Source: Bacteroidales bacterium (lineage in GTDB: Bacteria > Bacteroidota > Bacteroidia > Bacteroidales > UBA12077). Taken from it: DNA of 64,000 nucleotides. The stretch spans positions 824,169 to 888,168 of the forward strand of contig JAEINU010000001.1 in the NCBI GenBank assembly GCA_016342685.1. The letters run 5' to 3'. The position numbers and the translations under genes are program-made. The first letter of the stretch is position 1; every line of letters starts with the position of its first letter. Under the pieces are notes generated by a model. It saw only the letters and a program-made list of their open reading frames with translations, was not told the origin of the DNA and searched no databases. Below are positions 42,815 to 64,000 of the stretch, one piece after another.

Positions 42815-42860
42815 ATTTTTTCGACCATTAAGTTATTTTTGATATTTAAATAAGAAAGCT

Positions 42861-43265: not shown

Positions 43266-43283
43266 CCAAATAATATTCGAATT

Positions 43284-43787
43284 ATGGAAATAGAAACTAA
43301 AATAAAAATTGATTCTTATTTAACTTTTAAGATCGGTGATGAAGAATTTGGAGCACATGTAAATAAAGTGCTTAATATTCTTGAGTTACAAAATATTACG
43401 AAAGTTCCTAAATCTCCGGAGTATATGAAAGGAATTATTAACTTGAGAGGAAAAGTGCTTCCAGTTATTGATACTCGGATCAAATTTAATATGAATCCAA
43501 CTGAGTTTACCGATGATACCTGCATTGTAGTTATGGATCTAGAAATTGAAGATGATGTTATACATATAGGGGCTCTAGTCGATTCTGTTGTTGCTGTTCG
43601 AGAAATTGATGAAAATCAAATTAATCCTCCACCAAGTATTGGGAAAAGTTATAAGTCCGAATTTATTACAGGAATAGTTAAAGTTAATGAAAGGTTTGTG
43701 CAGATTTTGGATTTAGTAAAGCTTTTTACTGGTACAGAATTGAGTGAATTAAAGAAATCACAAAACAAGGTAAATGAAGAAGATTAA
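43284..43787 (+). CDS. cheW: Chemotaxis coupling protein CheW, module B
   Basis: About 75% identical to module A CheW. Confidence 0.85.
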   Translation: MEIETKIKIDSYLTFKIGDEEFGAHVNKVLNILELQNITKVPKSPEYMKGIINLRGKVLPVIDTRIKFNMNPTEFTDDTCIVVMDLEIEDDVIHIGALVDSVVAVREIDENQINPPPSIGKSYKSEFITGIVKVNERFVQILDLVKLFTGTELSELKKSQNKVNEED

Positions 43788-44772: not shown

Positions 44773-44784
44773 AAATTATAAAAA

Positions 44785-46782
44785 ATGAAAAATTTAAGAA
44801 TAGGTACAAAACTAGCTATTGGATTTATTATTGTAATTGGTATTAGTGTAGTTATTGGTCTTGTCGGTTATACAGGCATGCATTCTTTAAACGACAGAAT
44901 TGATAAAACAGAAGATGCGCACTCTGTTAGTAAAATGGCTTTAGATTTAAGAAGATATGAAAAGGACTTTATGCTTCGTCATGATGAAAAATCGATACAA
45001 GGCGGAACTAAAACCCTAGAGTCTATTTATGGTCAAATAGAAGAGTCTAAGTTGAAGTTTAAAGATCAAAAGGATTTAGATGATCTTGATGTATTAAAAC
45101 AAAAAGGAGATAATTATAAAGATGCTCTAACTGAGTATGTTAGAATTTACCAAGAAGACTATACTTTTAATATAGAGAAAACCATAAAAGAAGGAGAAAA
45201 AGCCATTGAGTTAGCTAAGGCGCTTCAATTATCTCAAAAACAACAAATGATCGATGAATTAGCAAAAGAAGTAAATAAGAATTTCTTGCTTAAACGTTTT
45301 GAAAAAAATGAACTGTCAAATGATATTCTAGAATCTTTTGCTGTAATACGTATAGATGCTAAAGGTTTTGTAATTAGTCGTGATCAAAAAGACGGCGCAA
45401 AAGTTATTGAGCAATTGGATCTTTTACTTGATAAAATTGACTATACAAAGAAGTTGATGAAAAAGAAAGTTGATATTCAGCAGCTTGAAGAGATGTATAA
45501 TGCGGTTGATGTTTATAAAAACGCTTTTGAAAAATCAGTTGAAGTTGTTGCTTTACAGGAAGATGAAGCCGATGTGATGGTAAGTTCAGCTCATGAATTT
45601 ATTGCTGTTGCTGATAAGTTAAAAGATGGTCAGTCTTTAAAAATGGTAAAAGAAGAACAGCGAGCTAGTTCTATGATTATAAGTTTTATGATTCTTGGAA
45701 TTATTTTAGGTGTTGTTATGGCATATATAATTACTCGAGGGATTATAACCGGACTTAGAAAAGGAGTCGATTTTGCAACTGCTATTGCAAAGGGAGATTT
45801 AACAGCAGAAATTGATATTGATCAGAAAGATGAAATAGGTTTATTAGCAAGATCATTAAAGATCATGGTTTTAAAACTTAAAGAGATTGTTTCTGATATA
45901 ACATCTGGAGCTGAAAATATTGCATCTGCAAGTCAGCAATTAAGTTCTGGATCAGAGGAAATGTCGCAAGGTGCATCAGAACAAGCATCATCTACAGAAG
46001 AAGTTTCATCATCAATGGAAGAAATGACTTCAAATATTCAACAAAATACTGATAATGCACAAGAAACGGAAAAGATATCAGTTATGGCAGCCAAAGGAAT
46101 CTCAGATGTTGAAAAGGCAGCTAAAGAAAGTTTAACATCGATTAAACAAATTGCAGAAAAAATTACAATTGTTAATGATATTGCATTTCAAACAAATATT
46201 TTAGCTTTAAATGCTGCTGTCGAAGCTGCTAGAGCAGGAGAGCATGGTAGAGGTTTTGCAGTTGTTGCAGCTGAGGTTCGCAAATTAGCCGAACGAAGTA
46301 AAGTGGCAGCTGATGAAATAATTTCATTATCGACATATAGTGTTAAGGCAACCGAAGAATCTGGTGAATTAATGTCTAAAATAATACCTGAAATTGATAA
46401 AACAGCAAGATTGGTGCAAGAGATTACGGCTTCTAGTTTAGAACAAAATTCAGGTGCCGATCAAATAAATGGTGCGATACAGCAATTAAATCAGGTAACT
46501 CAACAAAATGCAGCTGCCAGCGAAGAAATGTCTACAAGTTCAGAAGAACTATCTAGTCAAGCAGAACAACTTAAAGATGTTGTAAGTTTTTTCACCTTGA
46601 ATGATAAAACAAGAAATTTTAAGGGTAGTAAAAACACTTTAAAAGAATTTAAATTTGAAAAGCAAGACACACGCACAGATCGTATTAAAAAAGAATCTGC
46701 TGGTCATAGTGAAAATGCTAAAGGCTTTGATTTAAAATTGAATACAAACGACAATATGGATAAAGATTTTGAATCGTTTTAG
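44785..46782 (+). CDS. Methyl-accepting chemotaxis protein with all-helical periplasmic sensor (4HB/HBM-like), HAMP and MCP signalling domain (MCP2)
   Basis: Two TMs flank a ~265-aa helical domain; signalling domain ~90% identical to MCP1; C-terminal KDFESF. Confidence 0.9.
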
Positions 46783-46811
46783 GTAAGTAAAAATATTTTT
46801 TTAGTTTGAGT

Positions 46812-46842
46812 AAAAAGGGGCTGTTTAAAAAGCCCCTTTTTT
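46812..46842 (+). terminator. Rho-independent terminator after MCP2
   Basis: AAAAAGGGGCT / AGCCCCTTTTTT hairpin. Confidence 0.65.
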
Positions 46843-47000
46843 AATGTGTACACTCGACATGTTTAGTGTAGGGTGTTGGTAATTAGCTGTTTGTAATATT
46901 GATTTTATCAAAATATGAATAGCTTTTTTACTTTTTGGACAGTTCCTTCCTTATTTAAATAATAAAATAAAAATTAACATTTATTACATTATAAATGAAG

Positions 47001-47065
47001 AAAGGGCGTTTTACTTTTTCAATTACTTATTGTTCGAAACTTTAATATTGTCGTTAGACGATAGT
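47001..47065 (+). promoter_or_regulatory. Conserved ~65-bp non-coding element (copy 1) upstream of MCP3
   Basis: About 80% identical to 49786-49857. Contains TTTACTTTTTCAA, TATTGTTCGAAAC and a TCGTTAGACGA near-palindrome. Confidence 0.45.
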
Positions 47066-47356
47066 TACAACAATATGCTTTCTTCTGCTGATGAATTAAC
47101 TTCAAAAACCGCATTAATAAGATGAAGTTACTAACAGGTTCATATACAGAATCCTGTCTTTTTTTGTTTAAAAAAAGTATGTAAAACCCGAACTTTATCG
47201 AAAAAATGCAGTAAGAATAAACATTAATTCAATATTACAAATACAATATACATATTATACTTAATCGATAATTTGGAATTAATTAAAATATTATTGCAAA
47301 TAACTATCCTTCAAATGGGTAGTGCATAAGTTTATGAAAATTAAGTCGCTATTTCT

Positions 47357-49420
47357 ATGAAAAGAACACTTTCTATTCGGTCCAAACTAATTTATTTGGT
47401 TTTGATTACATGCATGCTTATATACTCTATAACAATTGCATACTTAATAATTAATTTAAAGTCATCATCACTAGAAGATGCTAAAAGACTGGTAGAAGAA
47501 TCAATTAAAACAGGAGCAAAAGAAATTGAAGCTGAATTGAACTTGCATATGGGGGTTGCTCGCAGTTTGGCTTATACCATGTCCGATTTCGAAAATATAT
47601 CTATTGAGAATAGAAGCCAATTTTACAATCCTATTTTAAGTAAAACATTAGATGCTAATCCGAATTACATTGGTACATATTTCACAATGGAATTAAGTGC
47701 ATACGATCCAGAATGGGGAAATGCTCCTGGCAGGGAATCAAAAATATTTTACAAAGATAAAGGAACAATTCATTACAATGAAGTTATACATGATGTTGGA
47801 GGAGTTAAGAAAAGAACAGGATATCATAAGGTAAAAGATACCATGAAGGAAGCAATATGGGAGCCATACTGGTGTGATACATATTCAACCGAAGCAGGAA
47901 GAGTACTCGAAACAACACTTGGTGTACCAATTATTATAGAAGGTCAATTCATGGGACTAGCAGGAATTGATATTGAGCTTAGTGTTTTTAAAGAATTAAT
48001 TGCTAAGATACAGCCTTTTAAGGATGGTTATGCCTTTCTACTATCGAATGAATCAACCTATGTTGCTCACCCTGATCCTGCTTGCATAGCAAAAAAATTC
48101 GATGAAGAAAATCCGGATGAAGAGCAATTGTACCATATAAGTGAAAAAATTAAAAATGGCGAAAGTTTTTCTTTTGAGGCAATACATACAGATTCAAACA
48201 ATGATTTATATGTAAAATTTGTGCCAGTGCATATCGCAAGTACTACAACACCTTGGTCACTTGGAATATTAGTTCCTATTAATTCAATTATGGTGAATTC
48301 GAACCGAATTATAAAAATCACGCTCATTGCAGGTTTTATTGGATTACTCATTCTGTTTTTAGTTATCTCAAATGTTAGCCGTAGCATTATTAAACCCATT
48401 AAGGATAGTGTTGATTTTGCTGAAAAAATTAGCCAAGGTGATTTGAATGCTAAATTAGATTTCGATTCAAATGACGAAATTGGCATTTTGGCTAAACATT
48501 TAATGAGTATGACCGAAAAGTTTAAAGAAGTTGTTGAGCAAATAAAGCAAAGCGGTGATGAAATAAATCAGGCCAGTATAAGGATTTATAAAAACTCAGA
48601 TCAACTTGCTTCAGGAGCCAATAGTCAGGTGGCAGCAACCGAGGAAGTTTCTTCTTCAATGGAAGAAATGATTGCTAATATTCAACAGAATACAGATAAT
48701 GCTCAGTTAACTGAGAAAATTACTTTGGTTGCAGCAGACGGTATAAATAAGGGAAATGCATCAACTGAAATTTCTGTAAAGTCGATGAGAAAGATTGCAG
48801 AAAAAATAACAATTATAAATGATATTGCATTCCAAACTAATATTTTAGCGCTAAATGCGGCTGTTGAAGCAGCAAGAGCAGGAGAACATGGTAAAGGATT
48901 TGCAGTTGTGGCTGCCGAAGTAAGAAAATTAGCTGAAAGAAGTAAAATTGCTTCGGATGAAATAAATCAACTTTCGCGTGAAGGAGTTCTAATTTCTGAA
49001 GAAGCTGGAGAACAATTGGCAGAAATTGTTCCAGAAATCGAGAAAACGTCAAAATTAGTTCAAGAAATTGCTGCAGCTAGTATGGAGCAAAATAGTGGTG
49101 CTGATCAAATTAATAGTGCAATACAACAATTAAATAAAATAACTCAACAAAACGCCGCTGCTAGTGAAGAAATGGCAACTAGCTCGGAAGAGCTTACTCA
49201 TCAGGCAGATCAATTAAATCATGTTGTAAGTTTCTTTAAAATTAGTGATGATTCAAAAATATACAATAGGAAAAAGTCTTTAAAACAACCTAAAGCTGAA
49301 AATTATTACAAAAACACAAATATTAAAAATGAAGATTCTATTCAAAGTAAAAATGTTAAAGGTTTTGATTTAAAGCTAAATACAACTGATAATATGGATA
49401 AGGATTTTGAATCGTTTTAG
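47357..49420 (+). CDS. Methyl-accepting chemotaxis protein with periplasmic double-Cache-like sensor (MCP3)
   Basis: Two TMs; Cache-like ~285-aa sensor; HAMP; MCP core; C-terminal KDFESF. Confidence 0.9.
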
Positions 49421-49445
49421 CAACAAAAAATAATTTTCAATTTTG

Positions 49446-49484
49446 GAAAAAAGGAGAACATATATAACATGCTCTCCTTTTTTT
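49446..49484 (+). terminator. Rho-independent terminator after MCP3
   Basis: AGGAGAACAT / ATGCTCTCCT stem plus T8. Confidence 0.55.
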
Positions 49485-49785
49485 ATTTTCTAGTTAATGG
49501 TTAAAACCCTGCAATTTCAATGTAGCTACTCTAGTTTCTATAAATTTCAATTAAAATTAAATCTACAATGTTCAAGTTTAAAGTAAATCACAAAACGTAA
49601 TATTCAAAGTCCAATATTTAGGTTTGGGTCATTAATGTGTAATGTTTTTATATTTTGAATATTGGATATTATTTGATATTTGTTAATTGTTATCTGGTGC
49701 TTGCTAAAGGAATTTTATTTGTAATCTATAGTGGTTAAGTTAAATGATGAAATAAGAATGAACAATTATTAAATTATAACTGATT

Positions 49786-49857
49786 AAAGGAAACTTTACT
49801 TTTTCAAATGCGTATTGTTCGATACTTTAATTTTATCGTTAAACGATAAATGTAATT
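49786..49857 (+). promoter_or_regulatory. Conserved ~65-bp non-coding element (copy 2) ending 19 bp upstream of MCP4; contains perfect palindrome ATCGTTaAACGAT
   Basis: Alignment with 47001-47065; palindrome read directly. Confidence 0.45.
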
Positions 49858-49875
49858 TGTAAAATATGTATATAT

Positions 49876-51900
49876 ATGAAATGGAAAAATTTAAAATTAG
49901 GAAGAAAGTTTCTTATCTCTTTTGGTTTAATCATAATGCTTCTGGTTGTTGTTGCTTTTTGGTCAATTAATGGTATAGGAGGAATTGTAAATGATGCCGA
50001 AGAAGTAATCGAAGGAAATAAACTTAGAGCGGATTTGGAAAATAAATATGTTCAACATCTTCAGTGGGCATCTAAAGTAAATAAATTATTAACTGATGAG
50101 AATGAAACGGTGCTCAATGTTCAAACCGATCCACATAAATGTGATTTTGGTAAGTGGTATTATAGTGAAGGGAGAAAACATGCAGAATCGCTAGCTCCTG
50201 AATTAAAATCTCTATTCGATGAGATTGAAGAACCTCACTTACATTTGCATGAATCAGCAACAAAGATAAATAATGTTTTTCATCAGGCCGACGTAACATT
50301 TGGAGACAAGCTTAGGGATGTAAAGAGTGCTCATTTGTTATGGGCACATTCAATTAAAGATGCTTTATTGCAACAAAAAAAGACCCTTGCTGTACAAACT
50401 GATCATCATAAATGTGAATTTGGGATATGGTTGGATTCGGATGAAATTATTCAAATGAGAAAAGAAGATCCAGAGTTAGACAGGTTATTAGTTAAGATCA
50501 TAGAACCTCATGAAAAACTTCACACAAGTGCTGTTCAGATACAAAATTATCTTTCACAAAGAAACTTTAATGCAGCTTATAATTATTATAATAACAATAC
50601 AAATAATTATGCGATAGCAACTTTAGATTTAATAGATGATGTCATTGCTTGGAATGATAAACATGTCCAAGGTATGAAGGAAGCCAATGCAATTTATAAT
50701 AATGAAACATTAGTTAACCTAGAACAAGTTGGAGATTTATTTTCTAAGATAGTTGAAAAATCAAAGGAGTATATTCTTACTGAAGATGTAATGCTTCAAC
50801 AAGCGGGAATTACAAGGGTAGGAGTAATTATTTTTAGTGTAATTGCCTCATGTATAGCAATTGTAGTGGCATTTTTTATTACACGTGGAATTGTAAATCC
50901 TGTAAAAAAATCAGTTGAATTTGCAAAAAAAGTAGCAAATGGTGATTTAACTGCTACTGTTGAAATTGATCAAAAAGACGAAATAGGAGTTCTAGCAAGT
51001 TCATTGAAAGATATGGTAGGTGAGTTGCGCAAAATTGTTGTAAATATTCAGGATGGTGCAGCCAATATCACTAGTGCAAGTTTAGAGATGAGTTCAACTT
51101 CTCAACAGATGTCACAAGGTGCTTCGGAGCAGTCTACTTCAACCGAGGAAGTTTCTTCATCAATGGAAGAAATGACATCTAATATTCAACAGAATACTGA
51201 TAATTCAAAGCAAACTGAAAAAATATCATTAGCTGCTGCAGAAGGAATTACGAATGTTGCAAATGCTGCGGATGAGAGTTTAATATCTATTAAACAAATT
51301 GCAGAAAAAATTACAATAGTCAATGATATTGCATTTCAAACAAATATTTTAGCATTAAATGCTGCAGTAGAAGCTGCTCGTGCAGGAGAACATGGAAAAG
51401 GTTTTGCAGTTGTTGCTGCTGAGGTTAGAAAGCTTGCAGAGCGAAGTAAAATTGCTGCCGATGAAATTAACGATCTTTCAAGAAGTAGTTTAGACGTTAC
51501 TAATGAAACAAGTGCATTAATGAAGAATATTATTCCTGAAATTGAAAAAACAGCTAGTTTGGTGCAGGAAATTACAGCATCTAGCTTGGAACAAAATTCA
51601 GGAGCGGATCAAATTAATAGTGCTATTCAACAATTAAACCTAGTAACGCAGCAAAATGCCGCAGCAAGCGAAGAAATGGCTACAAGTTCAGAAGAGTTAT
51701 CAAGCCAAGCTGAACAGTTAAAAGATATCTTAGGTTTCTTTAAGGTTGATAGAAAAAATATAAATAAATTGGAAAGATCTTATTCTTTAAAGCCAAGCTT
51801 GTCAAAAAGTGCTTTAGGGAAAAAATCAAAGATTGATATAGTTAAGAATCAAGGCCTTGATTTAAAAGATAATCTCGATAGTGAATTTGAATCGTTTTAG
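49876..51900 (+). CDS. Methyl-accepting chemotaxis protein with two tandem periplasmic CZB (chemoreceptor zinc-binding)-like domains (MCP4)
   Basis: Between TM1 (res 12-31) and TM2 (res 313-333): HLQW...[12 protein letters not shown]...EEPHLHLH and HLLW...[12 protein letters not shown]...EPHEKLH. This matches the CZB H-x3-C ... H ... H zinc site twice. HAMP; MCP core; C-terminal SEFESF. Confidence 0.85.
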
Positions 51901-52800: not shown

Positions 52801-54699
52801 TTATTCTAGTGTCAATTTATTATGAATCATTCTTTCTTGGTAGGATTGAATTATTGCCTTTATTTTATTTTCAATAGATGTATAATCTAAACCACTATTT
52901 ATAAGGTTGTTTTTTAATTGTTTATCTTCCTTTGTATAGTATACTCCAATTGTATTATTTCCATCAAATTGAATCGTGTAATCTCCTTCTATAAGCTGAT
53001 AAATTCCATTTATATAGTTTATCGAAAAGTGCGAAGTAGAATCATTTAAAAGACTATTACCAAAACAAATAAAAGGTTCCTTGTAAGAGATATAATCTAA
53101 AATCGTTGGAAATATATCTGTTTGTTGTGCTACATATTCACTGTTTCCCAGAAATATAGTATCCGTTGGATGATAAAAGAAAATTGGAATAGAATACATC
53201 CCCAATTTATTTTTATATTCAGCTTTTTCAACCTGAGCAGTATGGTCAGCAACAAATATAAATAGCGTATTTTTAAACCATTCTGTTTTTTTTGCAGATT
53301 TAAAAAATTGCTTTAATGCAAAATCTGTATAACCAATAGTTTCATGGATTTTCAGATTTCCTTTAGGAAATCGATCTTTGTATTTTTCAGGAATAGGATA
53401 AGGGTGGTGCGATGTTAAAGTGAATATTGTACTAAAAAAAGGTTTTTTAAATTCAGTTAATTTATCTTCCCAAAATGATAAAAACTCTTCATCAAAAATT
53501 CCCCATTGACCATCAAAATAGGCAGGATTATCAAACTCCGACATACCATAATATTCTTTGTATCCAGAAAGTCGAGCAAATTGATCAAACCCCATGGTGC
53601 CATTTTTTCCTCCATGAAAAAAACTGGTATGATAACCCAAATTATTTAAAATTTCGGGTAATCCTTTAATTGTATTCGACGAATATTTTGATGTAATATA
53701 AGGATTGTTTTGTAAAGATGGAATTCCTGCAGCAATCGATGTAATTGCCTCAATCGATTTCTTCCCATTAGCATATGCATTCGGAAAAACTAGGCTTTTA
53801 TTCATTAAAGAGTCTAAAAAAGGCGTATACCCAAATCCGTTATTTAAATAACCTATATATTCTTTAGAAAAACTTTCAAGTATAACAACTACAATATTGG
53901 TATTATGATTATTCTTAGGGCTATTAAGTACATGAATAGGATTGTAAATTGAATCTAGGGCATCTTTTTTTAAGTAATTTTTAGAAATCAAGGATTGTGA
54001 ACCAAACGATTTCATAATTGTAAATGGAGAATTCAAAACTAAGGGTATGTTTCGAGCCGAAGCGTGATCAGTTGCATGAATTGTTCGTAAAGGTTTTAAT
54101 TGAAATCCACCTCGCCCCCCTAATAAACCAAAACCGAGAATTAAGATAAAAATACCTATTTGAATTGTCAGTTGCTTAAAACCTTTTGATTTTTTTGATA
54201 AACTCTTCTCTTTTAATTTAGGATAGACCTTTACAATAAGGTAAGTTGAAAGTATCCATAATATAATTAAGTACCAGTAATCTTTTATAAATTGAGGAAG
54301 AAGTGTTTTGAAATCTTCTCCAAGCCAAACACCTGAAAAAATATCACTCGTAAGTCGTTTATTTTCGAAATCGAAAAATTTAGTATCTATAAAGTTTGTT
54401 GCTAATAAAAGAATATTGATAATCAAAAAGAAAGAAAATAGGATTTTTTGGTAAATCTTGTTGTTTTTAAAATCTCCAGGAATCAAACTTAGGAGTATAA
54501 AAATAATGTTAAAATAAAATAGAGCAGAAATATCAAATCTTATCCCTCCAAGAAGAATTCTTATAAATTCAAAAAAACCAATGCTATTGAAATAATTGAT
54601 GTTAAAACAATAAAATAGAATACGTGAAATGCTGAAAATTGCAATTAAAATTAGAAAACGTTGAAAAAATAATTTTATATGATAAAGGTAATTTTTCAT
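52801..54699 (-). CDS. LTA synthase / phosphoglycerol-transferase family protein (sulfatase-fold, MdoB/LtaS-like)
   Basis: Five N-terminal TMs; C-terminal alkaline-phosphatase/sulfatase superfamily domain (VVILESFS..., HGG..GT). Confidence 0.75.
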   Translation of the reverse strand: MKNYLYHIKLFFQRFLILIAIFSISRILFYCFNINYFNSIGFFEFIRILLGGIRFDISALFYFNIIFILLSLIPGDFKNNKIYQKILFSFFLIINILLLATNFIDTKFFDFENKRLTSDIFSGVWLGEDFKTLLPQFIKDYWYLIILWILSTYLIVKVYPKLKEKSLSKKSKGFKQLTIQIGIFILILGFGLLGGRGGFQLKPLRTIHATDHASARNIPLVLNSPFTIMKSFGSQSLISKNYLKKDALDSIYNPIHVLNSPKNNHNTNIVVVILESFSKEYIGYLNNGFGYTPFLDSLMNKSLVFPNAYANGKKSIEAITSIAAGIPSLQNNPYITSKYSSNTIKGLPEILNNLGYHTSFFHGGKNGTMGFDQFARLSGYKEYYGMSEFDNPAYFDGQWGIFDEEFLSFWEDKLTEFKKPFFSTIFTLTSHHPYPIPEKYKDRFPKGNLKIHETIGYTDFALKQFFKSAKKTEWFKNTLFIFVADHTAQVEKAEYKNKLGMYSIPIFFYHPTDTIFLGNSEYVAQQTDIFPTILDYISYKEPFICFGNSLLNDSTSHFSINYINGIYQLIEGDYTIQFDGNNTIGVYYTKEDKQLKNNLINSGLDYTSIENKIKAIIQSYQERMIHNKLTLE

Positions 54700-54987
54700 G
54701 AACTTTAAAATAAATGGAAGCCATTTTTATTCCAATTTGCTAAAATATAACCAAGTTCTTTAAACACCAAATAACTGACAAAAGTCATGTCGATGCTGAT
54801 TCGAACAAAAAACGTTTTTATGCTGTTGATATGCAGTACATTGTTTTATAACTTGTGTCATTATTCGATAAAAGTGTGAAAAAAAAAGTTTTATGTTAAA
54901 GAACAATATTTTATAGCATAAAATAATACCATAAATAATTAGTCTGTTATATTGATTATAAATACTTTTGCAAGAAATCTTTATATT

Positions 54988-55398
54988 ATGAAACCTTCAC
55001 ATATAGAACATATTGGAATAGCCGTAAAAAATCTTGAAGAATCGATCAAGTATTACGAAGAAGTATTAGGTCTTGAATGTTATAACATTGAAGAAGTTAA
55101 AGATCAGAAAGTTAAAACTGCTTTTTTTAAAGTGGGCGATACAAAGATCGAATTGTTAGAGTCAACTGATCCAGAAGGACCAATTGGTAAATATGTTGAG
55201 AAAAAAGGTGAAGGTATACATCACATCGCTTTTGCTGTTAAAGATATCGACAATCAACTTAAGAAAGCAGAAGAAAAAGGGATTCGGGTTATCGATAAAA
55301 CTTCACGAAGTGGGGCAGAAGGATTAAGTATTGGATTTTTACACCCAAAATCAACTTTTGGTGTTTTAACAGAATTATGCGAAGACAAAAATAAATAA
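54988..55398 (+). CDS. mce: Methylmalonyl-CoA epimerase (VOC fold)
   Basis: HIEHIGIAV and [10 protein letters not shown] metal-ligand motifs. Upstream of the mmd operon. Start moved to the internal Met, because the first 12 codons of the listed ORF lack conservation. Confidence 0.75.
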
Positions 55399-55433
55399 TA
55401 ATCTACTTCAAATATAATTTTCATTCATACCAA

Positions 55434-56993
55434 ATGAGTAAACAAGACAAAATTAAGCAACTTATTGACTTAAGAGCCGAAGCCAAATTAGGCGGTGGCG
55501 AAAAAAGAATTGAATCGCAGCATGCAAAAGGGAAAATGACTGCTCGTGAGCGTATCGAAATTTTACTAGACGAAGGTAGTTTCGAAGAATACGATATGTT
55601 TGTAACACATCGTTGTACAAATTTTGGTTTAGAAAAAACTAAAGTTTTAGGTGATGGAGTTGTTACAGGTTCTGGTACTATTGATGGCCGTGTAGTATAT
55701 GTATACGCACAAGATTTCACTGTTTTCGGTGGATCTTTATCTGAAACTTTTGCAAAAAAGATTTGCAAGGTAATGGATATGGCAATGAAAGTTGGAGCTC
55801 CAATTATCGGAATTAACGATAGTGGTGGTGCTCGTATTCAAGAAGGTGTTACCAGTTTAGCTGGTTATGCTGATATTTTCCAAAGAAACATTATGGCCTC
55901 GGGTGTTATTCCCCAAATATCCGCAATTTTTGGACCATGCGCTGGTGGTGCAGTTTATTCTCCTGCATTAACAGATTTTATTATGATGACAGAGAATTCC
56001 AGTTATATGTTTGTTACAGGTCCAAAAGTTGTTAAAACAGTAACTGGTGAAGAAATTACAACCGAAGATCTTGGTGGAGCAAATATTCACTCTTCAAAAT
56101 CTGGTGTTTCGCATTTCTTATTAGAAGACGAAGAAGAAGGTTTATTATTAATAAGAAAATTACTTAGCTATTTACCTCAAAATAACTTGGAAGAAGCTCC
56201 GGTTGTTGAATGTAATGATCCAATTGATCGTTTAGACGATGCTTTGAACGAGATTATTCCTGAAAATGCAAATCAGCCTTATGATGTAAAGGATGTAATT
56301 TACTCAATGGTTGACAATAGTGAATTTTTAGAAATTCATCGTCATTATGCTAAAAATATAGTTTGTGGTTTTGCTAATTTCGACGGAATGTCTGTTGGTA
56401 TTGTTGCAAATCAGCCTAATTTCTTAGCAGGTGTTTTAGATATTGATGCATCAAGAAAAGCAGCTCGCTTTGTTCGATTCTGTGATGCATTTAATGTGCC
56501 TATTCTTACTTTGGTTGATGTTCCTGGATTTTTACCTGGAAGTAATCAAGAATATGGTGGAATTATTACTCATGGTGCGAAATTAATGTTTGCTTATGGC
56601 GAGGCTACAGTTCCTAAAGTAACAATTACTCTTCGTAAATCATATGGTGGTGCACATGATGTAATGAGTTCAAAACAATTACGTGGTGATATTAATTATG
56701 CTTGGCCATCAGCTGAAATAGCTGTTATGGGTGCATCTGGAGCTGTTGAGGTTCTTTATGGACGCGAATTATCGAAAATAGAAGATGCCGACGAAAGAGC
56801 TAAATTTGTAGCTGAAAAAGAAGCAGAATATAAAGAGAAATTTGCAAATCCTTATCAAGCAGCTAGCTTGGGATATATTGATGATGTAATTGAACCACGA
56901 AACTCAAGATTTAGAATAATTCGTGCGTTTGAAATGCTTCAGACAAAAAAGGATACAAATCCACCAAAGAAACATTCAAATATTCCATTGTAA
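55434..56993 (+). CDS. mmdA: Methylmalonyl-CoA decarboxylase alpha subunit (carboxyltransferase)
   Basis: Strong propionyl-CoA carboxylase beta / MmdA family similarity over 519 aa; followed by delta, gamma (biotin) and beta (Na+ pump) subunit genes. Confidence 0.85.
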
Positions 56994-57003
56994 ATATTTA
57001 ATT

Positions 57004-57378
57004 ATGATTTCAGTTATAGCTAAAACAGGAACAGATTTCTCGATGGTTGCGGGATTTGGAGTTACTACCGCTATTGTTGGTTGGCTGATAGTTTTTGCGG
57101 CTTTAGTATTATTGGTTATTGTTTTTACACAAATACCAAAATTGATATACTATAATACTCGCAAAAAGCTAAAAGTTAAAAACAAAAGCGCAGTTGTTAC
57201 AGACGATGAATTGCATATTACAGGAGATGTTAATGCTGCCATTGCAATGGCATTATACATGTTTTTCGATGAAATGCACGACGAAGAAAGTAATGTAATA
57301 ACTATTAAACGTGTGAGAAAAACATATTCTCCATGGAGTTCAAAAATTTATGGATTAAGAGTTTGGCCAAGAAAATAA
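57004..57378 (+). CDS. mmdD: Methylmalonyl-CoA decarboxylase delta subunit (OadG-like small membrane protein)
   Basis: Single TM (VGWLIVFAALVLLVIVF) right after mmdA. Start set at the internal ATG, because the listed ORF overlaps mmdA by 70 bp in another frame. Confidence 0.55.
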   Translation: MISVIAKTGTDFSMVAGFGVTTAIVGWLIVFAALVLLVIVFTQIPKLIYYNTRKKLKVKNKSAVVTDDELHITGDVNAAIAMALYMFFDEMHDEESNVITIKRVRKTYSPWSSKIYGLRVWPRK

Positions 57379-57387
57379 TAAGCAAAA

Positions 57388-57813
57388 ATGAAAAAATTCA
57401 AATTTACAATAAGAGGTAACGAATACGATGTCGATATAAAAGACTTCGATGGAGATCTCGCTAAGATAGAAGTTAATGGCACTGATTATGATGTTGAAGT
57501 ACATCAAGAAGTTAAAGCTACTAAAACTCCTACATTAGTTCGCCCAAGAGTTTCTATTGACAGAAAGGATAGTAAAATTAAAAAATCTGTTAGTAACCGC
57601 TCATATGAACTTAAAGCTCCACTTCCAGGAAGTATTTTCAAAATACTTATGAACGAAGGTGATGAAGTTAAAAAAGGTGATACCATTATGATTATGGAAG
57701 CTATGAAAATGGAGAACAATATTCAATCTGAAAAAGATGGTAAAATTGTTACCATGAAAGTAAAAGAAGGTGATTCTGTTCTTCAGAATGATGTATTAGT
57801 TGAAATCGAATAG
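57388..57813 (+). CDS. mmdC: Biotin carboxyl carrier protein (decarboxylase gamma subunit)
   Basis: C-terminal biotinyl-lysine motif IMEAMKMEN. Confidence 0.8.
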   Translation: MKKFKFTIRGNEYDVDIKDFDGDLAKIEVNGTDYDVEVHQEVKATKTPTLVRPRVSIDRKDSKIKKSVSNRSYELKAPLPGSIFKILMNEGDEVKKGDTIMIMEAMKMENNIQSEKDGKIVTMKVKEGDSVLQNDVLVEIE

Positions 57814-57819
57814 TTTCTA

Positions 57820-59346
57820 ATGAAGACAATACTTAAAAATAATATGAAAAAACTTTGCTTAGTCATAGTAGCTTTTGTTTTTCTTCTTGGAAATTACTCT
57901 TTTGCCAATACTTCAGAAACCACAGATGCTCTGGTTACGGGCAAATGGGTTAATAAATCTGATGGATACAAAGTTAGAGCAGGCAGTGATGAAACAGTTG
58001 AAAGATATAAAGGAATAAAATTTGAAAAAAATCAGACATTCGTTTTAGATTCAGTTAAAATGAAATTTTCTGGTGAATGGAAAGTAATTGATAATATATT
58101 ATATCTTGAATTTAATGATCACAATATTGATCCAAAGATTGCAAGTTTCAGCGATGAAGGACTTATAATTGGAAACGATTTATATAAAAGTTATTCAGGC
58201 GCAGTTGCGGGCTTATTAAATTTTTATGAGTTTACAGGAGTGCCTAATGCTACTCCAGGCCATTTGCTTATGGTTCTGGTTGGAGTGTTCTTTATATTCT
58301 TGGCAATAAGATATAATTACGAACCTTTATTATTAATTCCGATTGGATTTGGTATCATCATTGGAAATATTCCATTTTATCAAGCCGAAGGATTTAATTT
58401 AAAATTAGGAATTTACGAAGAAGGAAGTGTAATGAGTTATTTATACTTTGGAGTTCGCCAAGGTATTTATCCTCCACTTATTTTCTTGGGAATTGGGGCA
58501 ATGACAGATTTTTCTTCATTAATTTCAAATCCAAAATTGATGATTTTAGGTGCAGCGGCTCAAATAGGTATCTTCTTAACGTTCCTTGGAGCTCTATATC
58601 TTGGATTTTCTCCAGCAGAAGCAGGAGCAATTGGAATTATTGGTGGAGCAGATGGTCCAACAGCTATTTTCTTATCGTCTAAATTGGCTCCGCATTTGAT
58701 CGGACCTATTGCGATTGCAGCATATTCATATATGGCATTGGTTCCAATTATTCAACCACCATTCATGAAATTGATTGTAACTAAAAAGGAACGATTAATT
58801 CGAATGAAACCACCACGTGCAGTTTCTAAATTGGAGAAAATTATGTTCCCGGTAGTTGGCTTGTTATTGACAGCGTATATTTCACCAAGTGCATTGCCAC
58901 TTTTAGGAATGTTGTTCTTTGGTAATTTATTAAAAGAATCAACTGTAACAAAGCGTTTAGCCGATACTGCAAGTAATGCATTAATCGATATTGTAACTAT
59001 ATTATTAGGAATAACTGTTGGAGCATCAACTCAGGCAGATATCTTTTTAACTCCACAATCTTTAAAGATTTTTGGATTAGGTGCTTTATCATTTATTATA
59101 GCTACTTGTGGTGGATTATTTTTCGCTAAACTAATGAATGTATTCTTGAAAGGCGATAATAAAATTAATCCATTAATTGGTGCAGCGGGTGTTTCTGCTG
59201 TTCCCGATAGTGCGCGTGTTGTTCAGCACGAAGGATTAAAAGCCGATCCTACAAATCACTTATTAATGCATGCAATGGCACCAAATGTTTCTGGTGTAAT
59301 TGGATCTGCAGTAGGAGCAGGTATTTTATTAAGTTTCTTAATGTAA
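57820..59346 (+). CDS. mmdB: Na+-translocating decarboxylase beta subunit (OadB/MmdB) with a ~140-aa N-terminal secreted extension
   Basis: Residues ~145-508 align with OadB (EPLLLIPIGFGIIIGNIP...). The N-terminal 140 aa have a signal peptide and a soluble beta-rich domain not typical for OadB. Confidence 0.75.
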   Translation: MKTILKNNMKKLCLVIVAFVFLLGNYSFANTSETTDALVTGKWVNKSDGYKVRAGSDETVERYKGIKFEKNQTFVLDSVKMKFSGEWKVIDNILYLEFNDHNIDPKIASFSDEGLIIGNDLYKSYSGAVAGLLNFYEFTGVPNATPGHLLMVLVGVFFIFLAIRYNYEPLLLIPIGFGIIIGNIPFYQAEGFNLKLGIYEEGSVMSYLYFGVRQGIYPPLIFLGIGAMTDFSSLISNPKLMILGAAAQIGIFLTFLGALYLGFSPAEAGAIGIIGGADGPTAIFLSSKLAPHLIGPIAIAAYSYMALVPIIQPPFMKLIVTKKERLIRMKPPRAVSKLEKIMFPVVGLLLTAYISPSALPLLGMLFFGNLLKESTVTKRLADTASNALIDIVTILLGITVGASTQADIFLTPQSLKIFGLGALSFIIATCGGLFFAKLMNVFLKGDNKINPLIGAAGVSAVPDSARVVQHEGLKADPTNHLLMHAMAPNVSGVIGSAVGAGILLSFLM

Positions 59347-59368
59347 TTTAATAACACAATTATAGATT

Positions 59369-59400
59369 CAAGGGCTGACTTTTTTAGTCGGCCCTTTTTA
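59369..59400 (+). terminator. Rho-independent terminator after the mmd operon
   Basis: AGGGCTGAC / GTCGGCCCT stem plus T run. Confidence 0.6.
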
Positions 59401-59499
59401 TTAAAATAATGTTGTTGAAAATAGCATTCAAAGCATAAAAACAAGAAACGATTATTATATTTGTATTGTAATGAATAGACATCCTAAAAATTATTAAAT

Positions 59500-60732
59500 A
59501 TGAGTAATAAAATTGCTAACGCCGGAAACATTGGCAAAAAAGTTAGATCAGATTGCTATGTTACTCTTGAATTAAAAGATTCGGGAGGAATAGTAATCAA
59601 TCAAAAGAGCAAGGTGCAGGTTCTTTATGGCGATTCTAATAATGAATTATGTAAAGATGTATTAAGCTTTTTCGGAATTGAAAATGCAATTCTAACACTT
59701 GAAGATCGCGGAGCTCTTCCTTTGGTAATTGCTGCAAGAATTGAAGCTGCAATTAAAACTCTAATTGATACGGATAAAGAATATCTTCTTGATTTTATCG
59801 ATGAAAATAATTACACATCAGAAAAAGAACAATTTCGTTTTTCAAGATTATACTTGCCAGGTAATAGTCCTAGCATGATGTTAAATGCAGGTATTCACGA
59901 GCCAAATGGTATTATTTTGGATTTAGAAGATTCTGTAGCATACAACAAAAAAACAGAAGCGCAGCATTTAGTGCGTAATGCGCTTCGTGGAATTAATTTT
60001 TATGGTGCTGAACGTATGGTGCGTATTAATCAGTTTCCTAAAGGGTTAGAAGATTTAAAATACCTTATTCCACATAATGTTCATATGTTGTTGGTTCCAA
60101 AATGTGAAGGTGCCGATCAAATTAAACAACTCGAAAAAAAGATAGTAGAATTAAAATCACAACATAAAGTTACTCATTCAATTTTCTTAATGCCAATTAT
60201 TGAAAGTGCATTAGGTGTTGAGAAAGCATTTGAAATTGCTACAGCATCAGAAAATGTTGTTGCTTTGGCAATTGGTCTTGAAGATTATACTGCTGACCTA
60301 GGTACTCGTCGTACAAATGAGGCAACGGAATCTTTCTATGCAAGAAGCAGAATGGTTAATGCATGTAAGGCAGCAGGTATTCAGGCAATTGATTCTGTTT
60401 TTTCTGATGTTGGAGATATGGAAGCATTAAAAGCAAATGTAAAGGTTTCTAAAGGATTAGGATTTGAAGGAATGGGATGTATTCATCCTCGCCAGATAAA
60501 AGTTATTCATGAGAGTTTTGCTCCTGAAGCGGCAGCGATTGATAAAGCAATGAAAATTGTTAATGCATTTATCATTGCAACAGAAAAAGGTTTGGGAGTT
60601 GTTTCATTAGGAACAAAAATGATTGATCCACCTGTAGTAAAAAGAGCAGAAAAGACAATCAATTTAGCAATTAGTTTAGGTTTAATATCTGAAAATTGGA
60701 GAGAGGATTTTTTAAATGAGCAAGCAGGTTAA
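59500..60732 (+). CDS. citDE: Fused citrate lyase acyl-carrier (gamma, CitD) and citryl-CoA lyase (beta, CitE) subunits
   Basis: N-terminal ~95 aa resemble CitD (CYVTLELKDSGGIVIN...ALPLVIAARIEAAI). Remainder is HpcH/CitE family (RLYLPGNSP...EDSV). 3' end overlaps citF by 17 bp. Confidence 0.7.
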   Translation: MSNKIANAGNIGKKVRSDCYVTLELKDSGGIVINQKSKVQVLYGDSNNELCKDVLSFFGIENAILTLEDRGALPLVIAARIEAAIKTLIDTDKEYLLDFIDENNYTSEKEQFRFSRLYLPGNSPSMMLNAGIHEPNGIILDLEDSVAYNKKTEAQHLVRNALRGINFYGAERMVRINQFPKGLEDLKYLIPHNVHMLLVPKCEGADQIKQLEKKIVELKSQHKVTHSIFLMPIIESALGVEKAFEIATASENVVALAIGLEDYTADLGTRRTNEATESFYARSRMVNACKAAGIQAIDSVFSDVGDMEALKANVKVSKGLGFEGMGCIHPRQIKVIHESFAPEAAAIDKAMKIVNAFIIATEKGLGVVSLGTKMIDPPVVKRAEKTINLAISLGLISENWREDFLNEQAG

Positions 60733-62269
60733 AAATGCTGTGGGACGTATGGTTCCTACAGAGATAAACGGAGAAGAAGTAATTCCTTTTAAGGGAATAG
60801 GAAAACATAAACCAACAGGACGTAAATATGCGCCGCCAATTCCAACGGTACTTGATTATCCCGAAGATGGAAATAAGGTTGTTGGATCATTAAAAGAAGC
60901 ATTAAAAAAGTGCGGTTTGTCTGATGGAATGACAATTTCTACGCATCACCATTTACGGAATGGTGATTTGGTTAGTAATACCATTTTTGATGCTGCAAAA
61001 GAAATGGGAGTCAAGGATTTAGTTTGGTTTCCATCAGCATCATTTCCATGTAACGAACCAATTATGGTGTACTTGGAAGATGGTACAGTAAATCGTATCG
61101 AAGGAAGTATGAACGGACCTTTAGGAAGGTTTGTATCACAAGGAAAGATGAAAGGAACTGCAGTTTTGCGTTCTCACGGTGGTCGTGCACAAGCAATTCA
61201 GGATGGTGAAGTGAAAATCGACATTGCTGTTTTAGCGGCTCCATCGTCTGATTTATTTGGTAATGCGAATGCTTTAAGCGGTCCTTCTGCATGTGGTGTA
61301 CTAGGTTATGCAACTACAGATTTTTTATATGCCGATAGAGTAATCGTAATAACAGATAATTTGGTTGATTTCCCAAATATGCCAATGGAAATCCAAGGTA
61401 ATTATGTTGATTTTGTTGTTGTTGTAGATAAAATTGGAATTCCTGAAAGAATTGTTTCTGGAACAACACAAATTACAAAAAGCCCTGATAGATTATTAAT
61501 TGCTGAGCTTACTGCTGACTTTTTACAAGAAAGTGAAATCTTGAAAGATGGTTGCTATATGCAAGCAGGAGCGGGTGGAACTTCATTGGCAATTGGTCAT
61601 TATCTTCATCAGATATTAAAGGAAAAAGGATGGAAATCGAAATTAGGTTTTGGCGGTAGTACAAAATATATGGTTCAAATGCTTGAAGAAGGCACTATGG
61701 AACATATCATGGATGCTCAGGCTTTTGATTTAGATGCTGTTGCTAGTATTGCAAATAATAAAAATCATCATCAATATCCCGTGTTCAATGCCTACAATTT
61801 TCATTCAAAAGGAAATTTAACATCTATGATGGATATTATGATTTTGGGTGCTACTGAAGTTGATGTAAATTTTAATGGAAATGTTGCCACACATTCCGAT
61901 GGTTACTTATTACATGGTATTGGTGGATGGCAAAATTGCTTGCATGCAAAGAATGTGATTTTACCAATTCCTTTATTTAGAGATCGTATTTCTGTTATTA
62001 AAGATGAAGTTACTACGATTTGCGGACCAGGTGAAATGATTGATATTATTGTTACTGAACGTGGTATTGCAATTAATCCACGACGTAAAGATTTAATTGA
62101 GAAGATGAAAAATAGTTCATTGCCAATTAAAACAATCGAAGAATTAAAAGCAGAAGCAGAAGCTATTTGCGGACCTGCTCAGAAACCAAATATTTCTGAT
62201 GAAGTGGTTGCTGCAATTAAATGGGTTGATGGAACTGTAATTGATGTAGTTCGAAAAGTGATTGATTAG
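60716..62269 (+). CDS. citF: Citrate lyase alpha subunit (citrate CoA-transferase), paralogue 1
   Basis: Full-length CitF similarity (GRMVPTEINGEE...ISTHHHLRNGD...). Confidence 0.85.
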   Translation: MSKQVKNAVGRMVPTEINGEEVIPFKGIGKHKPTGRKYAPPIPTVLDYPEDGNKVVGSLKEALKKCGLSDGMTISTHHHLRNGDLVSNTIFDAAKEMGVKDLVWFPSASFPCNEPIMVYLEDGTVNRIEGSMNGPLGRFVSQGKMKGTAVLRSHGGRAQAIQDGEVKIDIAVLAAPSSDLFGNANALSGPSACGVLGYATTDFLYADRVIVITDNLVDFPNMPMEIQGNYVDFVVVVDKIGIPERIVSGTTQITKSPDRLLIAELTADFLQESEILKDGCYMQAGAGGTSLAIGHYLHQILKEKGWKSKLGFGGSTKYMVQMLEEGTMEHIMDAQAFDLDAVASIANNKNHHQYPVFNAYNFHSKGNLTSMMDIMILGATEVDVNFNGNVATHSDGYLLHGIGGWQNCLHAKNVILPIPLFRDRISVIKDEVTTICGPGEMIDIIVTERGIAINPRRKDLIEKMKNSSLPIKTIEELKAEAEAICGPAQKPNISDEVVAAIKWVDGTVIDVVRKVID

Positions 62270-62294
62270 ACAGTAATTAATTAGATAGATTATT

Positions 62295-62326
62295 AAGCTC
62301 CGAAGAACTTCTTCGGAGCTTTTTAT
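62295..62326 (+). terminator. Rho-independent terminator between the two citF paralogues
   Basis: Perfect palindrome AGCTCCGAAGAA-c-TTCTTCGGAGCT followed by TTTTTATTT. Confidence 0.7.
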
Positions 62327-62439
62327 TTGATCGTTTTTAAAGGATGAATTAGGATACTACTTTTTAGGTATTTTCTATAAATCTAAATAATTGTATATTT
62401 ACCTTTATCATAAACGAACAAACAAAAGAACTAAATTAC

Positions 62440-64000
62440 ATGGGAAACAAATATTCTGGTCTTGTTACTAATGCTGTTGGTCGACTTGTCCCGACAGAAG
62501 TTAACGGCGAAAAGCAAGTTCCTTTTCAAGGGGTAGGGAAATTTAAACCCAATGCTTCAAAACACGGACCTAAAATTAATTCTTGTGCCGATTTTCCAGA
62601 AGATGGGAATAAACAAGTAAAATCTTTAAAAGAGGCTTTAGTAAAAGCTGGCTTGAAAGATGGAATGACTATCTCCACTCATCATCATTTTCGTAATGGA
62701 GATTTGGTGGCAAATCAGATTTTTGATGTTGCAAAAGAACTAGGTGTAAAAAATTTACGGTGGGTTCCATCGGCATCGTTTCCATGCCACGAGCATTTAA
62801 TTCAATATCTTGAAGATGGAACAATTCATCATATAGAAGGAAGTATGAATGGACCATTAGGACGTTTTGCATCTCATGGAAATATGAAAGGAATGGGAGT
62901 TTTGCGATCACATGGAGGGCGTTATCAAGCAATTCAAGATGGTGAAGTTAAGATTGACATAACAGTAATTGGAGCCGCATGTGCCGATGAATTTGGTAAT
63001 GCAAATGGTTTACATGGCCCATCGGCGAGTGGATTATTGGGTTTTGCATTAGCTGATTCTCAATATGCCGATAAAGTTATTGTTGTTACCGATAATATGA
63101 TACCATTTCCATGCGTTCCTTGGCAAATTCAAGGAAATTATGTTGATTATACTGTTCAAATTGAGCAGGTTGGTGTTCCTGAGAAAATTGTTTCTGGAAC
63201 AACACAAATAACAAAAAGCCCAGATCGTTTATTATTAGCAGAAATGACAGCCCAATTTTGTTTGGAAGCTGGTATTATTCGCGATGGATTTTCTTTTCAA
63301 TCAGGGGCTGGGGGAACATCATTAGCAGTAGGCGATTATTTTGCTAAAATAATGCGCGAGAAAAATATAAAAGCTCGTTTTGCACGTGGTGGAAGTAATA
63401 AGTACTTGGTTAGTATGCTCGAAGAAGGTTTGGTCGATTATATTTTAGACGGACAAACATTCGACCTCGATGGAGTAAAATCAATGGCTGAAAATCCAAA
63501 TCATACATGGACAAGTCCGTTTACAAGTTATAATTATCATGGGAAAGGGAATTTTGCAGGATTGGTTGATGTTGTTATTCTTGGAGCAACCGAAGTAGAT
63601 GTTAATTTTAATGCAAATGTTGTAACGCATTCCGATGGATTATTATTACATGGAATTGGGGGTTGGCAAAATTGCTTATTCTCAAAAACTGTAATATTAC
63701 CAGTTCCACTATTTAGAGATCGTTTCCCTGTAATTCTTGATGAAGTTACTACCATTTGTGGTCCGGGAGAATTAATTGATGTTATTGTTACTGAGCGAGG
63801 TATTGCAATAAATCCTAAACGAAAAGATTTAATTGAGAAATTAAAAGATACGAATTTACCTATAAAATCAATTCAAGAATTAAAGGATGAAGCAGAGAAA
63901 ATTTGTGGTAAGCCAGCAAAGCCTGAGTTTGATGATGAATTAATTGCAGTAATTAAATGGGTTGATGGTACAATTATAGACGCTGTAAAAAAAGTAAAAT
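62440..64000 (+). CDS. citF: Citrate lyase alpha subunit paralogue 2 (3' end runs off the window)
   Basis: ATG at 62440. Frame is open to the window end. About 60% identical to paralogue 1 (GRLVPTEVNGEK...ISTHHHFRNGD...). Not in the ORF track because no stop is reached. Confidence 0.8.
   Translation, partial: MGNKYSGLVTNAVGRLVPTEVNGEKQVPFQGVGKFKPNASKHGPKINSCADFPEDGNKQVKSLKEALVKAGLKDGMTISTHHHFRNGDLVANQIFDVAKELGVKNLRWVPSASFPCHEHLIQYLEDGTIHHIEGSMNGPLGRFASHGNMKGMGVLRSHGGRYQAIQDGEVKIDITVIGAACADEFGNANGLHGPSASGLLGFALADSQYADKVIVVTDNMIPFPCVPWQIQGNYVDYTVQIEQVGVPEKIVSGTTQITKSPDRLLLAEMTAQFCLEAGIIRDGFSFQSGAGGTSLAVGDYFAKIMREKNIKARFARGGSNKYLVSMLEEGLVDYILDGQTFDLDGVKSMAENPNHTWTSPFTSYNYHGKGNFAGLVDVVILGATEVDVNFNANVVTHSDGLLLHGIGGWQNCLFSKTVILPVPLFRDRFPVILDEVTTICGPGELIDVIVTERGIAINPKRKDLIEKLKDTNLPIKSIQELKDEAEKICGKPAKPEFDDELIAVIKWVDGTIIDAVKKVK

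Follow-up and report, generated by a model that had tools for sequence, protein, structure and literature searches.

The classical citrate lyases (CitDEF; EC 4.1.3.6) of Klebsiella, E. coli, and lactic acid bacteria are built from a CitD carrier, a CitE lyase, and a CitF transferase, and citramalate lyase is classified as EC 4.1.3.22. To our knowledge, the described forms of citrate lyase are always accompanied by genes that build and load the unusual cofactor of the carrier. Here, a related locus was analyzed in a 64,000-nt stretch of a Bacteroidales genome (the window, to whose positions the coordinates refer), in which the gene citDE is followed by two diverged genes for the alpha subunit, citF1 and citF2. 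The carrier serine region, Mg2+ ligands, catalytic Asp, and CitF motifs of the classical enzymes are common to the window proteins, whereas the separate carrier and linked CitC, CitX, and CitG of the classical loci are replaced by a fused carrier, two alphas, and no linked citC, citX, or citG. In the reading that we favor, with a probability of about one half, the two alphas would be alternative, separately regulated isoforms with the same chemistry that serve one fused carrier-lyase.

A fused CitE-CitD (IALB_1147) next to CitF (IALB_1146) was described in Ignavibacterium album, where the set was annotated as an ATP-independent citrate lyase and a role in citrate fermentation or the reverse tricarboxylic acid (TCA) cycle was proposed (Liu et al. 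2012; PMC3362086). By this description the window is of the I. album type, with fused CitD and CitE and a separate CitF, and differs from it in that one CitF is reported in I. album, where the function is inferred only. The Geobacter and Melioribacter papers deal with classical or ATP-dependent enzymes, and the literature yielded neither a biochemical study of the fused CitDE type nor a sequence-verified citramalate lyase. The CitD-CitE fusion is already known from annotation, and what is particular to this lineage is the paralogous citF pair.

A system of the same design, with three modules and a dependence on the carrier, is found in Peptoclostridium acidaminophilum (L089, NZ_CP007453.1:598510-617645; the loci used for comparison carry L numbers), whose lyase subunit is the closest match of the window CitDE in the plasmid collection PLSDB (41-42% identity). 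In contrast to the window, this system is unfused, and a citXG fusion, a hypothetical gene, and citC adjoin it in divergent orientation to the lyase genes, which run citD, "CoA ester lyase," citF, gntR, glmS, glmL, glmE, and methylaspartate ammonia-lyase. Judged by this gene context, the set is a strong candidate for citramalate lyase genes. The glutamate mutase and methylaspartase genes that adjoin it have no counterpart near the fused loci, and no glm or mal genes were found in the window or in the related loci.

Two further systems share single modules with the locus. The carrier of malonate decarboxylase (Mdc/Mad) belongs to the same Pfam family, PF06857, and shares the prosthetic-group chemistry; it works with the MdcA/MadA transferase, while the window has a CitF transferase and a CitE lyase domain instead. 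The malonate system of Malonomonas couples to a biotin-dependent Na+ pump, a kind of pump that is also encoded upstream of citDE, although the pump of the window is of the MmdA type and a terminator lies between it and citDE. The carrier-free CitE-like lyases (human CLYBL, malyl-CoA lyases, Mycobacterium tuberculosis CitE, and RipC) have the same TIM-barrel fold family, but act on free coenzyme A (CoA) thioesters and, unlike the window protein, have no fused carrier or partner CitF.

Carrier and lyase domains of CitDE

Residues 16-87 of CitDE matched the Pfam family ACP (PF06857; E 4e-14, 53 bits) and residues 117-330 matched HpcH_HpaI (PF03328; E 2e-48, 165 bits). Both lie in a single open reading frame (ORF) of 410 aa, and the fusion proposed in a first reading of the window (the sequence-only reading) was confirmed: CitDE is a true gamma-beta fusion, with carrier and lyase in one polypeptide. 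A CitD-type acyl-carrier domain (residues ~1-90) is followed by a conserved linker (~91-112) and a CitE-type TIM barrel (~113-400), so that the carrier is the N-terminal domain of the CitE protein and a separate CitD of roughly 10 kDa is missing.

The active-site positions of both domains are strictly conserved. In the carrier domain, Ser17 is invariant (70/70 homologues); in alignments it meets the two serines of the "ESSD" motif in real CitD sequences and falls within one residue of the attachment serine of Klebsiella CitD. Human CLYBL, malyl-CoA lyases, and classical CitE can be aligned with the entire lyase domain, and the metal and catalytic residues are conserved; Glu235 and Asp262, which bind the metal, and Asp376 in the C-terminal part are invariant in all 70 homologues as well. 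Since a carrier domain with an invariant serine is combined with an adjacent CitF, carrier-bound substrates are indicated for CitDE.

Two citF genes in predicted separate transcription units

Both alpha subunits matched the Pfam family CitF (PF04223) from end to end, with E values of 7e-136 for CitF1 and 1e-144 for CitF2, and narrowly passed the 501-bit equivalog cut-off of TIGR01584 citF (512 and 539 bits, respectively). For the sequence beyond the window end, L081 was used, a JGI contig of the same species with 97.3% DNA identity over 54001-64000 that was reached through the 99%-identical protein P0002. An NCBI protein, P0001, of a Bacteroidales metagenome-assembled genome (MAG) is 100% identical to CitDE; look-ups by exact sequence with CitF1 and P0001 gave no record. 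In L081 the full length of CitF2 is 521 aa, and only the last codon and the stop codon are cut off in the window. The sequence-only reading was right about the two citF copies but put their identity at about 60%, and the actual value is 66% (340/514, ungapped). The ratios of nonsynonymous to synonymous divergence (dN/dS) against orthologues were 0.02-0.04 for citF1 and 0.03-0.05 for citF2, at saturated dS, and were as low as that of mmdA. By this measure, both copies are under strong purifying selection and functional.

The last 17 nt of citDE are shared with the start of citF1, and an overlap of this kind suggests that the two genes are translationally coupled. The perfect-palindrome terminator noted earlier between the two citF copies (Table 1) withstood a shuffling analysis, with a folding energy of -18.5 kcal/mol, z = -5.1, and 0/200 shuffles folding as well. 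A hairpin with a U-run is present 3' of the first citF in 6/7 tandem loci (L001, L002, L004, L005, L010, and L032), and the sequences of these hairpins are unrelated. Closer to citF2, the promoter-like 18-mer AAATAATTGTATATTTAC is identical in the window, L001, L002, L004, and L005, has one mismatch in L010, and sits about 40-60 nt 5' of the citF2 ATG across the six genomes. As the hairpins are alike in structure and not in sequence and the 18-mer is conserved, the comparison supports the earlier proposal that citF2 starts its own transcript. The 18-mer was also considered as the site of a wider regulator, a role that found no support, as it occurs once in the window, with no second copy.

A terminator after mmdB likewise separates citDE from the upstream mmd operon, and an equivalent hairpin, GGGYCAG...CTGRCCC with a T-run, was found in L001, L002, L005, and L067. 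The promoter-like motif ACGATTATTATATTTGTAT in front of citDE was kept in the window, L001, L002, L003, L005, and L067. Its inner box, TATATTTG, fits TAnnTTTG, reportedly the -7 consensus of Bacteroidetes (Bayley et al. 2000), and a similar box, TATATTTA, lies within the 18-mer of citF2. No Rfam family of regulatory RNA was found in 54600-64000; the only match, a weak one, was that of the terminator hairpin to a microRNA model. The predicted signals fit three transcription units, namely, the mmd operon, citDE-citF1, and citF2, the last with a rubredoxin gene in this species.

Two CitF clades in the fused family

The fused family was surveyed in a scan of one genome per species, which gave 80 loci. 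A full fused CitDE beside CitF was recovered in 71 of them, most of the remaining loci being cut by contig ends, and the carrier-plus-lyase architecture was seen in all of the best 120 protein-database relatives. The fusion is common in MAGs of anaerobes, and the taxa include Bacteroidales, Marinilabiliales, Lentimicrobiaceae, Chloroflexota/Anaerolineales, Cloacimonadota, Delongbacteria, and others. In a neighbor-joining (NJ) tree, 86 CitF proteins of the related loci fell into two clades, F1 and F2, with 77% identity within each clade and 66% between them. When unfused CitF sequences, including the Streptococcus mutans structure 2HJ0 and the Peptoclostridium protein, were added, F1 and F2 together formed one clade that is sister to all unfused CitF tested (37-45% identity), and the CitF of the glm-linked Peptoclostridium locus grouped with the classical CitF and not with F1 or F2. 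Neither paralogue clusters with classical citrate lyase alphas. Because the old sister clades F1 and F2 exclude both the classical and the glm-linked CitF, their split is not the split between citrate and citramalate enzymes, and the proposal of one isoform for each of these substrates fails in its simple version.

Among the 80 loci, 27 were F1-like and 46 F2-like, mostly with one type per genome. The two types occur together only in the window group (L001, L002, L004, L005, and L006), L010, and L032. Within the window group, L003 retains F1 only, and L067 retains F2 only, 34 nt 3' of citDE. A further locus, L082, had appeared to lack CitF1, and this was due only to a different start-codon call. 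On the CitDE NJ tree, the partner F type changes at least 8-9 times, compared to ~18 times with shuffled labels. A family-wide co-variation of the CitE C-terminus with the CitF type was considered and rejected, since every CitDE segment gave 8-9 switches; the association is confined to one recombination block in L010. There, in the comparison of L010:5389-9875 with window 59500-64000, the last ~250 nt of citDE and all of citF1 are 76-87% identical at the DNA level, compared to 54-67% for the remaining citDE and 65-75% for citF2. L010 appears to have gained the citF1 cassette together with the CitE C-terminus by transfer or recombination onto its own citDE-citF2.

Most genomes have F1 or F2 alone beside the same fused CitDE, so that no second carrier has to be assumed, and the earlier suggestion that one alpha works with a different carrier found no support. 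In its general form, in which citF2 serves an unlinked carrier or acts as a free CoA-transferase, this explanation would agree with the separate transcription of citF2 and with the existence of orphan CitF homologues such as the citF of Rhizobium leguminosarum pRLG203, which has neither citD nor citE. It is nevertheless highly improbable, as F2-type proteins are the sole CitF beside the fused CitDE in 46/80 loci, in L067 immediately behind citDE, and no second carrier or citE was seen downstream in L081. The orphan citF itself (L086, 7881-9407) is flanked by genes for a CaiB/BaiF-family CoA-transferase, a LysR regulator, and a fumarate hydratase, and this suggests that some CitF relatives may act outside a lyase complex.

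It is very doubtful that the second alpha is a redundant, nonadaptive by-product of duplication or horizontal transfer that is heading for loss. The reciprocal losses in L003 and L067 and the frequent type switches on the CitDE tree would be expected of such a gene, but the dN/dS values of 0.02-0.05 for both copies over saturated dS would not, and at least six species-level genomes have kept the two genes in tandem together with the terminator and the promoter motif.

Search for activation genes

No CitC, CitX, or CitG was found in the 64-kb window, either by Pfam on 45 ORFs or by hidden Markov model (HMM) and phmmer searches of the six-frame translation, in agreement with the sequence-only reading. 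E. coli CitX, CitG, and CitC sequences were checked against Pfam (E 1e-53 to 2e-85), and further CitX, CitG, and CitC sequences were taken from annotated unfused PLSDB loci and built into four-sequence HMMs, which were run with filters off. The six unfused loci were those of Streptococcus equi (L085), Gluconobacter albidus (L087), Secundilactobacillus paracollinoides (L088), Peptoclostridium acidaminophilum (L089), and Fusobacterium vincentii (L084 and L090). CitX, CitG, and/or CitC were matched in 6/6 unfused loci with E 1e-34 to 1e-171, while the best E value in the window and in the 83 fused loci L001-L083, within ~10 kb, was 0.16. The missing linkage in the window and in 83 loci makes this a property of the whole fused family and not of the window. 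In Fusobacterium vincentii, there are two separate citDEF sets, L084 with citG and L090 with citC.

Past the window end, citF2 is followed in L081 by genes for a 51-aa rubredoxin (14518-14673, 11 nt 3' of citF2), a lipoprotein, a TetR regulator on the opposite (minus) strand, an S8 peptidase, an asparaginase, and a sulfatase. No second citDE, second carrier, citC, citX, or citG was found downstream of citF2 in this contig, and a more distant relative showed the same downstream picture, without a second citDE or citC/citX/citG. The downstream context is not that of a duplicate operon. Rubredoxin also follows the single citF in L020, L021, and L030, with no obvious link to the lyase.

Operon context, substrate, and proposed cycle

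F1 and F2 types were found in the same kinds of operons, with genes of the aconitase family, the isocitrate dehydrogenase (IDH) family, and HDIG proteins, and citDE-citF runs in the same direction as such genes in Delongbacteria/UBP11, Chloroflexota, and several Bacteroidales (L007-L011, L018-L031, L044-L050, and L069; e.g., L008:8228-16948 and L047:5120-12916). Aconitase- and IDH-family neighbors were present in 17-19/80 loci. The hydratases belong to the homoaconitase/isopropylmalate (IPM) isomerase family, with two in tandem in Delongbacteria/UBP11, and the dehydrogenase is closest to homoisocitrate/isocitrate dehydrogenases, with the Thermus homoisocitrate dehydrogenase nearest. The HDIG neighbor has 182 aa and a degenerate HD motif; an XRE-cupin regulator (L007, L008, and L011) and a PrpD-like dehydratase (Chloroflexota) were additional neighbors. 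Targeted searches of the window found none of the aconitase-, IDH-, HDIG-, PrpD-like, and rubredoxin genes of the other loci. Neighbor clusters with LexA-, RecQ-, RecJ-, and LipB-type and lipoprotein genes were inspected by eye and set aside, none being plausibly related to the lyase.

The locus would encode a variant of a carrier-dependent enzyme of the citrate lyase type, with CitDE as one polypeptide and the alpha CitF separate. We infer its catalytic cycle by homology. An acetyl group would be held by a thiol cofactor on Ser17 of the carrier; CitF would exchange it for a hydroxy-acid, most likely citrate, with the release of acetate; and the CitE domain would cleave the bound acyl with Mg2+ (Glu235 and Asp262) and the catalytic Asp376, which would yield an oxo-acid, oxaloacetate in the case of citrate, and the regenerated acetyl-carrier. 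The alpha would be supplied by a translationally coupled citDE-citF1 unit and by a second unit with its own promoter, comprising citF2 and, in this species, rubredoxin, and the two alphas would perhaps also be kinetically tuned differently. In this reading, citrate would be the substrate and both alphas would be equal in function.

Several findings weigh against this reading. The best NCBIfam match of the lyase part is citE (TIGR01588) with 259 bits, below the 443-bit equivalog cut-off, and that of the carrier part is citD (TIGR01608) with 54 bits, below the cut-off of 64. The CitE domain is 33-37% identical to classical CitE and 42% to the glm-linked Peptoclostridium lyase beta subunit, and because it is slightly nearer to this probable citramalate lyase, citrate is not secure as the substrate. 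In the CitF alignment, several of the 13 clade-specific sites adjoin universal motifs (e.g., F312R by GG and L80F after HHH), so that a shift in specificity is possible. The tandem F1 and F2 pairs have been kept over saturated synonymous divergence, and the apparent acquisition of citF1 by L010 speaks for some nonredundant benefit.

These findings bear on two alternatives. In the first, the two alphas would load different hydroxy-acids on the same carrier, e.g., citrate and citramalate or another 2-hydroxy-polycarboxylate. The long retention of the tandem pairs, the independent gain of F1 in L010, another F pair in L032, and the few nonconservative clade-specific changes near conserved motifs would fit this, as would the homoaconitase/IPM-isomerase, homoisocitrate/IPM-dehydrogenase, and PrpD-like neighbors of other loci, which may act on substrates other than citrate or isocitrate. 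We consider it unlikely, since F1 and F2 are sister clades of which neither goes with the glm-linked CitF, each type is found singly in the same operon contexts, close relatives get by with either alpha alone, and the cleavage of both acyl-carriers would fall to a single CitE domain. Fixed differences between F1 and F2 amount to 13/518 aligned columns, 227/518 columns are conserved and identical, and every recognizable CitF motif is common to both clades. A subtle difference in specificity between F1 and F2 is possible. Taken together, the comparative data weaken both the different-substrate explanation and that of another carrier.

The second alternative, somewhat unlikely though tenable, is that the whole fused system is not a citrate lyase and acts on citramalate or another 2-hydroxy acid, or as the end step of a reductive route that shortens 2-oxoacids by IDH-like carboxylation, aconitase-like isomerization, and cleavage. 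The subthreshold CitE and CitD scores and the proximity of the CitE domain to the Peptoclostridium lyase linked to glutamate mutase and methylaspartase are in line with it, and none of the three components falls within the classical clade. Pfam scans of the 45 ORFs found no citrate carrier gene in the window, and no OadA-type oxaloacetate decarboxylase adjoins the lyase genes there, the neighboring carboxyltransferase being of the MmdA (acyl-CoA) type; in the citrate fermentation cluster of Klebsiella and Enterococcus, in contrast, a citrate transporter and OadA lie beside the lyase. On the other hand, the best NCBIfam matches are still citE, citD, and citF, with both CitF above the citF cut-off, the aconitase- and IDH-family neighbors suit citrate and isocitrate at least equally, and the identity gap of the CitE domain is small and the trees are NJ only.

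A more far-reaching and decidedly unlikely variant is that the fused family is self-contained without CitC, CitX, and CitG, primes its serine in another way, and provides the cleavage step of a reductive pathway, with two alpha specificities. Priming might then involve another transferase, a phosphopantetheine arm, or acyl-CoA-dependent loading, and a 2-oxoacid would be converted through a (iso)citrate-like acid to acetate and a shorter oxo-acid in anaerobes of several phyla. In Bacteroidales, this pathway would feed the Na+-pumping succinate-propionate route.

Upstream mmd operon and other features of the window

The features of the locus are listed in Table 1. The epimerase gene and four subunits of a Na+-translocating decarboxylase form the mmd operon, 54952-59346, and the combination of an MmdA-type carboxyltransferase with methylmalonyl-CoA epimerase identifies the upstream Na+ pump as a methylmalonyl-CoA decarboxylase set. 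If citrate is the substrate of the alternative alphas and their shared carrier-lyase, the oxaloacetate formed could feed a fumarate-succinate-propionate route whose last steps are encoded by this operon. The mmdB product has 508 aa, of which the OAD_beta profile spans residues 148-507 only; the ~145 residues before it form an N-terminal extension with a hydrophobic segment at its start. In several unrelated Bacteroidales loci, a VOC gene that passes the equivalog cut-off of methylmalonyl-CoA epimerase lies 22-80 nt 5' of citDE (L018, L021, L022, L025, L030, and L031; also L014). An epimerase next to citDE suggests a recurring link to propionate metabolism.

Table 1. Features of the citDE-citF locus and the upstream mmd operon
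Feature	Position in the window	Strand	Basis or description
Methylmalonyl-CoA epimerase gene	54952-55398	+	Pfam/NCBIfam
MmdA-type carboxyltransferase gene	55434-56993	+	TIGR01117, 816 bits
Small OadG-like subunit gene	end 57378	+	
Biotin carrier gene	57388-57813	+	
mmdB, membrane beta subunit of the decarboxylase	57820-59346	+	
Intrinsic terminator after mmdB	59370-59396	+	11-bp stem and T-run
Promoter-like motif ACGATTATTATATTTGTAT	59448-59466	+	Conserved in six genomes, spacer otherwise diverged
-7-like box TATATTTG, inside ACGATTATTATATTTGTAT	59456-59463	+	36 nt 5' of the citDE ATG
citDE, 410 aa	59500-60732	+	Pfam, NCBIfam
citF1, 517 aa, F1 clade	60716-62269	+	Pfam, NCBIfam, tree
Intrinsic terminator between citF1 and citF2	62295-62331	+	Perfect 12-bp stem, 3-nt loop, T-run
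Promoter-like 18-mer AAATAATTGTATATTTAC	62385-62402	+	Conserved in six genomes, spacers otherwise diverged
-7-like box TATATTTA, inside AAATAATTGTATATTTAC	62394-62401	+	38 nt 5' of the citF2 ATG
citF2, F2 clade, 520 codons inside the window	62440-64000 (window end)	+	Pfam, NCBIfam, tree

Elsewhere in the window, a signaling cluster that is unusual for Bacteroidales occupies 37890-51900, with at least three receptors of the methyl-accepting chemotaxis type (40402-42474, 44785-46782, and 49876-51900), two pairs of receiver and CheW-like genes (38677-39574 and 42861-43787), and a LuxR-type response regulator; the scanned ORFs included no CheA. The gene at 12146-15238 encodes a 1030-aa fusion of an nSTAND1 NTPase with WD40 repeats, and that at 17517-24428 a protein of 2303 aa that carries a C-terminal sorting domain for type IX secretion. 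On the minus strand, two paralogous S9 prolyl oligopeptidases of 694 aa each are encoded close together, at 26289-28373 and 29069-31153, with a small OmdA/YdeI-like gene between them.

Implications for the fused family

The finding of two paralogues is by itself of modest interest. The lack of linked citC, citX, and citG and the recurring neighbors of the aconitase and IDH types are consistent, unexplained oddities of the family as a whole. If the helper genes were missing from whole genomes, the route of carrier activation would be unknown. The fused genes are sometimes invoked to close the reverse TCA cycle in environmental anaerobes, and if the oddity of the fused type holds, metabolic reconstructions of anaerobes that use the label "citrate lyase" would rest on an unproven assignment. 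The arrangement with two alphas would offer a natural experiment on subunit exchange in carrier-lyase complexes.

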